From Nitrospirota bacterium (GTDB lineage: Bacteria; Nitrospirota; Thermodesulfovibrionia; Thermodesulfovibrionales; UBA9159), in contig JAMCQB010000063.1 in NCBI GenBank assembly GCA_023382175.1, positions 133 to 64,132 of the forward strand: 64,000 bases of DNA. Direction: 5' to 3'. The position numbers and the translations under genes are program-made. The notes under the pieces were generated by a model. That model saw nothing but the letters and a program-made list of their open reading frames with translations, was not told the DNA's origin and did not search any database. Every line of letters begins with the position of its first letter. Position 1 is the stretch's first letter. Below, one piece after another: positions 1,672-4,446 of the stretch.

Positions 1672-4446
1672 TTAATCGCCCAGAACACTCTTCAGATACT
1701 TCCCCGTATAGGACTCGCTGACTTTTACGATCTCCTCGGGCGTTCCCTCGAAGATGATCCTGCCGCCCTGGTCGCCGCCCTCGGGTCCGAGATCAACAAT
1801 CCAGTCCGAGGCTGCGATGACGTCAAGGTTATGCTCTATCACCACAACACTATTGCCCGCGTCCACCAGCCTTCGAAGCACATCGATGAGCAGTTTCACG
1901 TCATTGAAATGGAGGCCGACGGTGGGCTCGTCAAGGATATACAGGAATCCTTTACCCCCCCATCCCCCCCTTGCCAAGGGGGGGTGTGAGGGGGGTAGTT
2001 CAGAACATATCTTGAGCCTCTGGGCTTCACCTCCTGACAGGGTGGTGGCGGGCTGCCCCAGCTTGAGGTACCCCAGACCCACCTCTTTCATGAGGGAAAG
2101 CCTGCTGAATACTGCCGGCACATCAGAAAAGACCTCCAGGGCCTCGTCAACGGTCATGTCCAGGACATCGACGATATTCTTGCCCCTATAGATGACCTTC
2201 AGGGCCTCGGGTCTGTATCTCCTGCCGCTGCACTCTTCGCACTTGATAAAAATGTCTTCGAAAAAATACATCTCCATCTTCTGGTACCCCTCTCCCCTGC
2301 ACGTCTCGCATCTCCCTCCCGGCACATTAAAGGAGAAGAACCCCGGGCCGTAACCGTTGGCCTTTGCCTCTATCTGCTCAGAAAAGAGTTTCCTTATCTG
2401 GTCGAATATCTTCAGATACGTCACAGGGTTTGAACGGGGAGACCTGCCTATGGGGGTCTGGTCAATGATCTTCAGTCCCTTTACAAACTCCTTGCCCTGG
2501 AGGGACCGGTAGGGCAGGGGGGTATCCTCCTGAAGGCCGAAACTCTTTGCCAGCGCATGGCAAAGGGTCTCGACAACGAGGCTGCTCTTGCCGGAGCCCG
2601 AGACGCCGGTTACTGCGGTCAACGTCCTCAGAGGAATTGTCAGGTCAACTTCCTTGAGGTTATTTCCCCTCGCACCATAGAGGATGAGTTCCTTCCGCTC
2701 TCTTTTCAGCGGATGCCTGGCATCGCGGCTGAAGGTTATCCTTTCGATGCCTTTCACATACCGCGCGGTTAACGTGTTCGCATTCAGGAATTTTTCCCTG
2801 GGGCCTGAAAAGACGATTTCACCGCCTTTATGGCCGCCGCCGGGACCGAGTTCCACGATCCAGTCCGCAGCCTGTATGATTCCTTTGTCGTGCTCCACTA
2901 CCACTATGGTATTGCCCATTCCGGAGAGTTCAGCCATTATCTTTGCCACCCGTTCCGTGTCCCGTGCATGGAGTCCCACTGTGGGCTCATCCAGGACATA
3001 GAGGGTGCCCGTGAGGTAAGATGCAAGCTGGTTCGAGAGGTTCACGCGCTGATATTCCCCGCCCGAGAGGGTCTTCCCCTGCCTGCTGAGGGTGAGATAG
3101 TCGAGACCGACCCGCTGGAGGAAGGAGAGTTTAAGGGTGATCTGCCGAAGGATCTCTTTTGCCATATCCCTCTGGAACGGTGAAAGGTCAATGTCCCGGA
3201 AGAACCCGGCCAGGTTCACTAGCGGAAGATCGGTAAGCCCTGCGATGTCCAAATGGGAGATCTTGTAGGAGAGCGCCTCTCTCTGGAGCCGCTTGCCGTT
3301 GCATGTGGGACAGACGGAACTTTTCCTGTATCTGCTGAGGAAGACCCTGACATGCAGCTTGTATCTCTTGCTCTCCAGTTCCTCGAAGAAATCGTCGATG
3401 CCGTAGAAATTCGGATCACCCTTGAATATCTTCTCCTTTTCTTCTTCGGAAAATTCCAGGAACGGTTTTTTCAGATCGATCCCCGACTTCTTCGAGCCGG
3501 CCAGGAACTGCCGTTTCCACCATTTTGCAGCAGGTTTTTCCCATGGCTCTATGGCCCCTTCAGACAGGGAGAGGAGTTTATCCGGGAATATGAGGTCCTC
3601 GTCATAGACCAGAATGTTGCCGAACCCCTTGCATTTCTGGCATGCGCCCACCGGATGGTTGAAGGAGAAGAGAAGGGGTGACGGTTCAGGAAGCTCTATC
3701 CCGCACTCATCGCAGGCATTTGAAGCGGTGAATTTCAACACTGTTTTCCGGTTCGACCCGTTATCCACCAGCAGCACCTTTAGCCTCTCATTTCCCTCCC
3801 TCCATGCCATCTCAAGAGAGTCGGAGAGACGGGGGTCGTCCCTTATCACGAGCCTGTCCAGAACTACATCCAGGGGGGAGACCACACCGAACTCCGTGCC
3901 CTCATCAATGTCCACCACCTCATCGTTCACCAGAAAGCGGCGGTATCCCCGTTTCTTCAGCTCTTCAAGGGACTCTCCGGTTTCGAAGAGGATAAGGGCC
4001 TTTCTTCCCTCATACTCTTCTGTCAACAACCGGACGATCTGGGAGGTATCCCATTTTCTGATCTCTTTGCCGCACCGGGGACAGTAGGGCGTCGAGACCT
4101 TTGAATAGAGAAGCCTGAGATAGTCGTATATCTCGGTGAGAGTCCCCACTGTGGAACGGGAACCGCGCACCGGGTTTTTCTGTTCCAGGGCCACGGCGGG
4201 GCGTATATTGTGGATGGCATCCACGTCGGGTCTGTCCAGTTTTTCGAGGAACAGCCTTGCATAGGTAGACATGGATTCGATGAACCTCCACTGGCCTTCC
4301 GCAAATATGGTATCGAAGGCAAGGGATGATTTTCCTGACCCCGACACGCCGGTGACCGCAATGAAGGTATTATGGGGCAGCTTCAGAGTGATGTTTTTGA
4401 GGTTGTTCTGCCGCGCCCCTTCGATTATCAATTCCCGGATTGACAT
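1672..4446 (-). CDS. uvrA: excinuclease ABC subunit A (UvrA family, somewhat divergent)
   Basis: 924 aa with two ABC modules: Walker A [14 protein letters not shown] and [11 protein letters not shown], signatures LSGGEYQR and LSGGEAQR, Walker B [12 protein letters not shown] and [12 protein letters not shown]. Several CxxC zinc modules are present. The motif [18 protein letters not shown] deviates from canonical UvrA. Confidence 0.85.
   Translation of the reverse strand: [924 protein letters not shown]
1953..1997. repeat. GC-rich nested palindromic element, copy A (inside the uvrA CDS, in frame)
   Basis: TAC7-AT-C7TTG-C-CAAG7-TGTGA-G6TA, 45 bp. It is translated within UvrA as [14 protein letters not shown], between the second LSGGE signature and Walker B. 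Confidence 0.75.

Follow-up and report, generated by a model that had tools for sequence, protein, structure and literature searches.

A 64,000-nt stretch of the genome of a Nitrospirota bacterium of the order Thermodesulfovibrionales (contig JAMCQB010000063.1, forward-strand positions 133 to 64,132; the whole of this stretch is called the window below) carries a uvrA gene in which part of the protein is encoded by a 45-nt nested palindrome. The palindrome occupies the linker between the helix that starts at the second ATP-binding cassette (ABC) signature and the second Walker B strand. Our analysis indicates that it is very probably a short, dispersed, non-coding hairpin repeat that was absorbed into the uvrA reading frame and is tolerated there, UvrA remaining functional. 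The element is a dispersed repeat, is missing from sister genes and is tolerated; the insert behaves as a passenger, neither as an adaptation nor as an inactivation. The features of the gene concerned are as follows, with coordinates counted along the window.

1672..4446, minus strand: uvrA, 924 aa, class-I excinuclease ABC subunit A, host of the insert (TIGR00630, 3pih/2r6f alignment, AlphaFold model)
1921..1944, minus strand: Walker B II strand LYILDEPT, residues 835-842 (motif, model)
1945..1995, minus strand: 17-residue linker, codons 818-834 (the nearest orthologues and solved structures have 8)
1953..1997, minus strand: 45-nt nested palindromic repeat element, coding strand TA-C6-TCACA-C7-TTGGCAA-G7-AT-G7-TA
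1964..1984, strand not assigned: inner perfect hairpin C7-TTG-C-CAA-G7, the core of the family, of which 19 nt recur at 33777-33795
2026..2040, minus strand: ABC signature II LSGGE, residues 803-807, start of helix 805-816 (motif, model)

The palindrome and the linker that it occupies

The sequence at 1953-1997 is exactly that given in the initial annotation: on the plus strand it reads TAC7-AT-C7-TTG-C-CAA-G7-TGTGA-G6-TA, 45 nt in which C-runs and G-runs form a nested palindrome containing four homopolymer tracts of 6-7 nt each. The inner 21 nt (1964-1984) make a perfect 10-bp stem around a single central base; pairing of the outer arms is imperfect, C7 facing G6 and the bulges AT and TGTGA being asymmetric. 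The coding-strand RNA is predicted to fold at -36.7 kcal/mol (z = -2.97 against dinucleotide shuffles). The window holds the 19-nt core C6TTGCCAAG6 twice, at 1965 and at 33777, where 0.03 chance matches would be expected; the palindrome and the repetition of its core lie above chance expectation. The element begins at base 2 of codon L817, ends at base 1 of codon K832 and encodes P818-G831 within an open 924-aa reading frame, in agreement with the 14-15 in-frame residues claimed earlier. As its C-runs read as proline and its G-runs as glycine, and five of the six reading frames of the 45-mer are free of stops, the element is simply translated; in uvrA, translation across it is predicted from the open frame. 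The G7-AT-G7 tract on the sense strand of uvrA (1954-1969) fits the G-quadruplex consensus G3-N1-G3-N2-G3-N1-G3 and is one of seven such motifs in the window. A quadruplex formed by it, in the RNA or in the non-template DNA, could compete with the hairpin.

UvrA linkers at this place are short, as the initial annotation states. In solved UvrA structures the linker has 8 residues (T. maritima, RKRDTGRT; G. stearothermophilus, HRRSNGRT), as it has in the eleven closest distinct orthologues (P0002-P0012; 79-88% amino acid identity), for example SFGSTGDF and SFGGKGGF. The window gene has 17. Its DNA is 85% identical over the gene to that of two sister orthologues, L001 and L004, neither of which carries such an element; native sequence flanks the linker on both sides and the native linker itself has been replaced, the codons being TCC TTC GGA AGC ACG GGT GAC in L001 and CCC CCC TCA CAC CCC CCC TTG GCA AGG GGG GGA TGG GGG GGT AAA GGA in the window. 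The insertion proposed earlier therefore stands insofar as it is in frame and absent from the closest orthologues, but the net excess over these is 9 residues (27 nt, not 45 nt) rather than 15, and part of the change is replacement. An independent assembly from another Joint Genome Institute (JGI) metagenome, L003, contains the identical 45-nt element and differs by 5 single-nucleotide polymorphisms elsewhere in uvrA, which excludes the assembly artefact that the initial annotation had considered.

In the AlphaFold model, residues 805-816 are helix, 817-832 coil and 833-839 strand; the predicted local distance difference test score (pLDDT) falls below 50 at 820-829, and both flanks are confident. 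The insert is thus modelled as coil next to the C-terminal Walker B, between the signature-II helix and Walker B II, where it had been placed from the sequence, and is probably a disordered Pro/Gly-rich loop lengthened from 8 to 17 residues. In the general ABC fold, the signature motif opens the helix and the catalytic Asp-Glu closes the Walker B strand. On this fold, the secondary structure and the pLDDT profile, the linker loop would lie at the surface and at the periphery, at those ends of helix 805-816 and strand 833-839 that are furthest from the nucleotide sites. The closeness to the ATPase site noted earlier holds along the sequence, but probably not in space.

The host gene and the repeated occupation of its loops

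The uvrA product scores 1013.8 bits against TIGR00630 (cutoff 729.8) and 1065 against NF001503, slightly under the strict cutoff of 1147, and aligns end to end with 3pih (T. maritima, E = 2e-262) and 2r6f (G. stearothermophilus). Its AlphaFold2 model (mean pLDDT 81) matches 2r6f and 3uwx at template-modelling (TM) scores of 0.86-0.89. PF17760 (UvrA_inter) and PF17755 (UvrA_DNA-bind) are among the Pfam matches of P0001, a protein identical to the window UvrA; since the UvrB-binding and insertion domains and the zinc modules are present, the protein belongs to class I, distinct from the class II UvrA2. In an alignment of 63 Thermodesulfovibrionales UvrA sequences, the two Walker A motifs (both GVSGSGKS), both signatures, both Walker B motifs and the H-loops EHD and EHN are invariant, and the Cys pairs C122/125, C245/248, C269/272, C379/382, C713/716 and C736/739 are conserved.

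The initial annotation had questioned whether this UvrA functions and had described the protein as divergent elsewhere, too. However, the residues in question, W53, R54 and F55 (AEGQWRF), are invariant in 63 of the 63 aligned sequences and are a trait of the clade, not a sign of decay. The ratio of nonsynonymous to synonymous substitution rates (dN/dS) between the window uvrA and its insert-free sister L001 is 0.088 over the whole gene, at a dS of 0.65, and 0.059 in the 60 codons on either side of the linker. It is 0.108 at a dS of about 1 between L015 and L017, both of which have the insert, 0.068 between L005, in which the insert has decayed, and its sister L204, and 0.109 between L203 and L205. 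Since these ratios are low in an insert-bearing pair as well, insert-carrying UvrA has long been kept by purifying selection. With its ATPase and zinc motifs intact and selection of this kind acting on the gene, the window UvrA looks functional, and the doubt raised earlier finds no support. A second uvrA, for which the initial annotation had advised looking, was not found within the 64-kb window, where the only weak match is a generic ABC ATPase near 51 kb.

Among 121 homologues, the linker has 7-8 residues in 52 and 11-40 residues in 69. Many of the long linkers are of the type PPS(R/H)...; others read PPSPPFxKGGxGG or begin with G (GDWGLG...NPKP), and degenerate forms occur as well. L015/16, L017-19 and, with an expanded loop, L012 contain live palindromes whose orientation and frame are those of the window gene. 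Other subfamilies are live at the linker of L020 and L024, and in L013 one element is nested with another in a linker of 40 residues. The UvrA proteins of insert-bearing relatives are ~70% identical to that of the window, and synonymous sites are saturated (proportion of synonymous differences, pS, 0.79). Where the window gene and L017 encode the same amino acid, they use the identical codon at 10 of 13 positions within the linker and at 106 of 342 elsewhere (Fisher p = 0.001); the corresponding comparison with L015 gives p = 6e-5. Such codon identity in spite of saturated synonymous sites reflects identity of the element, not conservation of the protein. PPLARGG-type linkers, whose conservation in UvrA of unrelated taxa the initial annotation had held to count against its reading, do recur in many UvrA proteins of the same order, but they do so through this identity at the DNA level. 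In the decayed copies of L005, L203 and L011 (PYSHHFHAKGVRKDKGF, APSHHTLARGGWEGKGS), the protein sequence drifts and the length is kept, suggesting that the encoded peptide itself has no function.

Neighbour-joining trees were built with the linker removed and 200 bootstraps. They group the window gene with the short-linker P0002-5 (100%), P0013, which has a decayed insert, with the short-linker P0006/7/8/10 (99.5%), and P0014 with P0021/28 (100%), and the window gene joins P0013 in 0% of replicates. These groupings indicate at least three separate acquisitions of one subtype of the element, 'SH'. As judged from these sequences, the window copy was gained after the split from the insert-free sister lineage. 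The three 'SH' lineages are alike in the 17-residue length, in the register, in which host codons are replaced and in the loss of one codon after K-G.

Live C/G hairpins in 69 related uvrA ORFs (open reading frames; 186 kb) are restricted to two loops: the linker between signature II and Walker B II, and a loop ~158-165 residues past Walker A I. The latter belongs to the region of the UvrB-binding domain according to the 2r6f alignment and follows residue 186 in window numbering. Live elements in it are of an AATC6..G6ATT subtype (e.g., NPPIPPLVKGGKGGF) and were found in L023, L024, L026, L032 and L033. L024 has elements at both loops, and the second loop of the window UvrA is empty.

Palindromes of other kinds were also observed at the linker. 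G-first, heptamer-like palindromes (GDWGLG...NPKPLNPKP) occur there in L055 (3598-3672), L066 (1785-1871) and L009/L010; they are reminiscent of the heptamers of cyanobacterial short tandemly repeated repetitive (STRR) sequences. In two distant genes of the UvrA family (42-44% identity), at L075 6489-6560 and L072 8527-8571, the equivalent linker contains two unrelated hairpins, GCGGGCAAAATGCCCGC and TCAGGCAAAATGCCTGA, which resemble repetitive extragenic palindromes (REPs) and encode AGKMPA/SGKMPD. The linker loop thus seems to attract hairpin repeats beyond the Nitrospirota. A protein search for insert-bearing UvrA in other phyla, made with a short query of 62 aa over the linker, returned only UvrA fragments of at most 109 aa, with canonical linkers.

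Arrival of the element and competing explanations

The course of events that we propose begins with a 45-nt nested hairpin, with C/G-run arms and a TTGGCAA loop, that would have entered the DNA for the loop joining the signature helix to Walker B II, replaced part of the native linker and been read through in frame. It might have been mobilised in trans by a transposase acting on hairpin DNA, or an insert-bearing linker allele might have spread via short-patch recombination that made use of the highly conserved flanks. Only in-frame copies, in two permissive loops, would afterwards have been retained by selection.

Several points weigh against this account. There is no clean 45-nt insertion: with a net gain of 27 nt, ~6 native codons gone and no target-site duplication, the change is a replacement, or an insertion plus a deletion, and the insertion event itself is beyond reconstruction. 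A transposase or another gene able to mobilise the element was not identified, the ORFs of the window not having been screened for transposases, and just 2-3 copies of the family lie in the 64 kb. Pairwise dN/dS values are averages over both lineages, in which a very recent inactivation would go undetected, and expression across the hairpin and the G7-AT-G7 tract is a prediction only. Lastly, random insertion and selection do not by themselves readily account for the length and register shared by three independent lineages, which may point, we suggest tentatively, to targeting or allele transfer.

The last point leads to an explanation that is a refinement of ours and compatible with it, namely that the linker is actively preferred, either by integration that is specific for its sequence or structure or because a linker allele is moved in a homing-like manner by short-patch homologous recombination at the near-invariant flanks, one of which is LYILDEPT. 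We regard this as a serious possibility, though one that falls short of being probable. It is favoured by the 'SH' subtype having been gained in three separate lineages with 17 aa, one register and like codon replacement, by conservation of the element far above that of synonymous sites in the rest of uvrA, and by a right junction common to all uvrA-borne copies, G7-TA-A(N)-GG(N), that does not belong to the element at other loci. The window codons just upstream, TCT GAA CTA, match those of L017 (TCT GAA CTT) and not those of the sisters (TCS GAG TTG), which is a weak hint in the sequence of short-patch transfer. However, identity between the window gene and L005 is not raised at the linker (0.67, against a gene mean of 0.746), no donor was found, any transferred patch would be at most about 60 nt long, left junctions vary between subfamilies from 0 to 9 residues after SEL, and the existence of a second hot loop in UvrA fits a simple filter for permissive loops. 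A recombination tract shared by the window gene and L005, whose insert is also 'SH', was considered and rejected, as sliding identity revealed none. A stronger proposal, in which C/G-run hairpins of one cross-phylum family would land or home specifically at the linker with the aid of the invariant flanking codons, appears unlikely to us. If it were true, the element or the insert-bearing linker allele would pass from lineage to lineage into one register, and a 45-nt hairpin would occupy a conserved repair gene in the way that inteins do, yet stay in the protein; as a corollary, the C7/G7 tracts and the G7-AT-G7 quadruplex motif could make nucleotide excision repair switchable.

It is very improbable that the insert is ancient, was inherited vertically and owes the preservation of its palindrome to selection or gene conversion, with the short linkers representing repeated secondary losses. 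PPS(R/H)-type linkers are indeed widespread in the order, linkers exceed 8 residues in 69 of the 121 homologues, close relatives in the lower clade differ in linker type, suggesting turnover, and palindromes are prone to deletion. Against this, the window gene, P0013 and P0014 are each nested among short-linker groups at 99-100% bootstrap, so that at least eight independent losses would be needed. The short linkers are moreover homologous to one another (SFGGKG-D/N-F) with a universal length of 8 residues, and since they hold a codon without a counterpart in the insert alleles, they are not simple deletions of an insert allele. We consider it just as implausible, if not slightly more so, that the insert disables UvrA or switches it, as a pseudogene or as a mutator or contingency locus driven by slippage in the C7/G7 tracts. 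Four tracts of 6-7 nt do lie in an essential part of the ORF, G7-AT-G7 fits the quadruplex consensus on the sense strand, and REPs in uvrABCD and recBCD have been speculated to be a source of mutators (Di Nocera et al., 2013, PMC3733652). But the ORF is intact with equal tract lengths in two independent assemblies, no tract-length variants were seen in the related loci, which are all in frame, dN/dS is 0.06-0.11 even where the insert has been carried for a long time, and the catalytic motifs are all conserved. Palindromes and homopolymers are error-prone in sequencing and assembly, and local slippage can yield Pro/Gly-rich loops; still, an artefact, or a native low-complexity loop evolved in place, is effectively refuted by the identical element in an independent metagenome assembly, by the exact core at a second window locus and in at least 119 genome stretches with like flanking architecture, and by the live copies in many other uvrA genes.

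The repeat family and its known counterparts

The initial annotation had assigned the uvrA palindrome to an element family, and the exact 19-nt core is indeed present again in the window, in a gene for a hybrid histidine kinase.

33761..33807, minus strand: second family copy, TAC6-TTTCAATT-C6-TTGCCAA-G6-ACACAGA-G4-T, in frame in the hybrid histidine kinase gene 32954-35656; exact 19-nt core at 33777-33795

This copy lies between HisKA (aa 515-575) and HATPase_c (aa 640-760) and has the same architecture as that of uvrA with other bulges. The two are read in different frames, giving PPLARGG in uvrA and SPLGKGG in the kinase. Outer pairing of AAATCCCC with GGGATTT widens the kinase copy to 33753-33830, which suggests a larger nested structure.

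A scan for the exact 19-mer in one genome per GTDB species (596 Gb, in which we estimate that ~4 matches would arise at random) found C6TTGCCAAG6 in at least 119 stretches of public genomes (L084-L202). Among the matches listed, the core is concentrated in Cyanobacteria (Microcoleus, Nostoc, Scytonema, Microseira and others), Planctomycetota (Gemmataceae, Phycisphaerae and Isosphaeraceae) and Nitrospirota/Thermodesulfovibrionales. The presence of the core with similar outer arms in three phyla, far over chance, raises the alternatives of convergent origin and horizontal spread. The common layout is [A-C6-7, 3-8 nt] C6-7-TTGGCAA-G6-7 [2-7 nt, G6-8-T], with the inner motif C6-7-TTRGCAA-G6-7. Of 155 copies in the loci examined, 21 carry an outer arm on each side, 48 on the left alone and 72 on the right alone; the window uvrA copy has both. 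Its right side, G7-AT-G7-TA, is also found at the unrelated Nitrospirota loci L159 and L192, and therefore the whole 45 nt is element and not host sequence.

ORFs of 200 aa or more extend across about half of the copies (5 of 10 in Nitrospirota and 18 of 37 in Cyanobacteria), and two of the three copies in the window are within genes. In-frame copies in long Nitrospirota ORFs affect genes for an N6-methyltransferase (right before the NPPY motif) and for PheT-like and PrmC-like proteins, and one ORF of 1583 aa has two. Short tandem arrays of hairpins were also noticed, in L171 (4665-4780), L176 (1966-2055), L181 (960-1125) and L112 (4803-5035), with periods of about 39, 35, 72 and 106 nt, respectively, and near-identical spacers. 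We rejected the idea that they resemble CRISPR arrays, as they are tandem amplifications of the element plus its flank. Rfam returned only sub-threshold chance hairpin matches (Pab91 at 25.8, gathering score 71) and no known RNA family.

To our knowledge, in-frame 'selfish' palindromes are textbook matter for Rickettsia alone, with scattered REP cases elsewhere. Rickettsia palindromic elements (RPE) are described as AT-rich, about 100-150 bp long, confined to Rickettsia and encoding a family-specific conserved peptide (Ogata et al., 2000, 2002, via PMC10969869). By that description, RPE and the present element are both dispersed palindromes with no known transposase, found in frame in many unrelated housekeeping genes, where the extra peptide takes positions considered compatible with the fold. 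The element differs in having 45 nt, C/G homopolymer arms, a Nitrospirota host and two reading frames in use, and the likeness is one of description and carries no evidence of common descent.

REPs of the GTAG/CGTC type are stem-loops of 20-40 bp that are mostly extragenic and sometimes lie in ORFs, where they add 7-30 residues; they are in excess in replication and repair genes, and the uvrA genes of Opitutus terrae and Thioalkalivibrio contain them (Di Nocera et al., 2013, PMC3733652). Repeats of this class typically lie downstream of ORFs and are associated with a RAYT (Y1 HUH) transposase gene that they flank. Since REPs in uvrA have been reported there, the phenomenon as such is known. 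The present element resembles them as a short stem-loop repeat that at times encodes extra residues within ORFs, but about half of its family's copies are within long ORFs, and the GTAG/CGTC end tag is not conserved. The window uvrA copy ends in GGGGGGTAG, L017 and L015 in GTAA, the histidine kinase copy in GGGGTCA and other copies in GGGGGGTC or GGGGGGATC; because the end tag varies in this way, membership of the GTAG-REPs was rejected. The REP sites in O. terrae uvrA (aa 224-239 and 440-462) are not at the linker between signature II and Walker B II (PMC3733652). In Thioalkalivibrio, Tgr7_1444, a double UvrA of 1889 aa, has REP dimers at aa 865-887 and 1761-1783 (PMC3733652, Additional file 3), which might lie roughly at this linker in each half; if so, the hot spot would be common to an unrelated REP family in Gammaproteobacteria.

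Transposable elements of the miniature inverted-repeat kind (MITEs) such as Correia/NEMIS and ERIC are 70-300 bp long, with terminal inverted repeats and target-site duplications (PMC10969869). Like these, the uvrA element is a non-autonomous repeat able to fuse in frame with host ORFs, but it has 45 nt that are all hairpin, and the empty sites L001, L004 and L204 show replacement, not duplication. The flanking TA..TA was examined as a mariner-like target-site duplication and rejected, because the TA pairs belong to the palindrome and the empty sites show replacement. Inteins and homing elements offer an analogy only: here too, one precise site in a repair ATPase, with near-invariant flanking motifs, is reoccupied across lineages, whereas the uvrA element has no endonuclease, splicing or coding capacity and is kept in the mature protein. 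Elhai and colleagues are said to have described, in 2008, small dispersed repeats (SDR) of cyanobacteria as very short nested or palindromic mobile repeats of Nostocales, which integrate within one another and within genes. The C6TTGCCAAG6 core is likewise abundant in Nostoc, Scytonema and Microcoleus among the matches listed. A literature search found no paper on such Nitrospirota elements, and its full-text matches to the core or the peptide included none of relevance; SDR families were not compared by sequence. The nested-hairpin family with C/G-runs and TTGGCAA is apparently undescribed, within the known class of in-frame palindromic elements that includes RPE and intragenic REPs.

To that class, the present sequences would add a distinct and much shorter family of C/G-run hairpins in Nitrospirota, whose copies are often predicted to be translated in housekeeping proteins. 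The uvrA site is an unusually clean natural experiment, with live, decayed and empty states over dozens of related genes; what it adds is a well-documented hot spot at which one subtype was gained repeatedly in the same register. It makes two questions testable, how hairpin repeats are mobilised and targeted without a transposase, and why DNA-repair genes recur among REP-tagged ORFs (Di Nocera et al., 2013). In practice, such inserts should not be taken as pseudogenisation, and they inflate the number of 'hypothetical' PP..KGG peptides in annotations.

Some minor observations concern the surroundings of these copies. A third C/G-rich palindrome of the window (61300-61342) has another core (CCCTCCCCC-TCGA-GGGGGGAGGG) and is intergenic, immediately upstream of efp (about 60702-61290, minus strand) and next to a pepP-like ORF (61360-62574, minus strand). 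The start listed for the efp ORF, a TTG at 61331, is probably over-extended into the palindrome. Within the pepP-like ORF, a small coding hairpin at 62249-62272 (CCTCCTCCC/GGGAGGG, fold -15 kcal/mol) may represent a decayed or minimal form related to the family. Beside uvrA, the window has only a gap of 280 nt (1394-1671) where, on the sister contig L001, a gene for a 4HBT thioesterase separates uvrA from a kinase-PPPase gene, a local difference in gene content.

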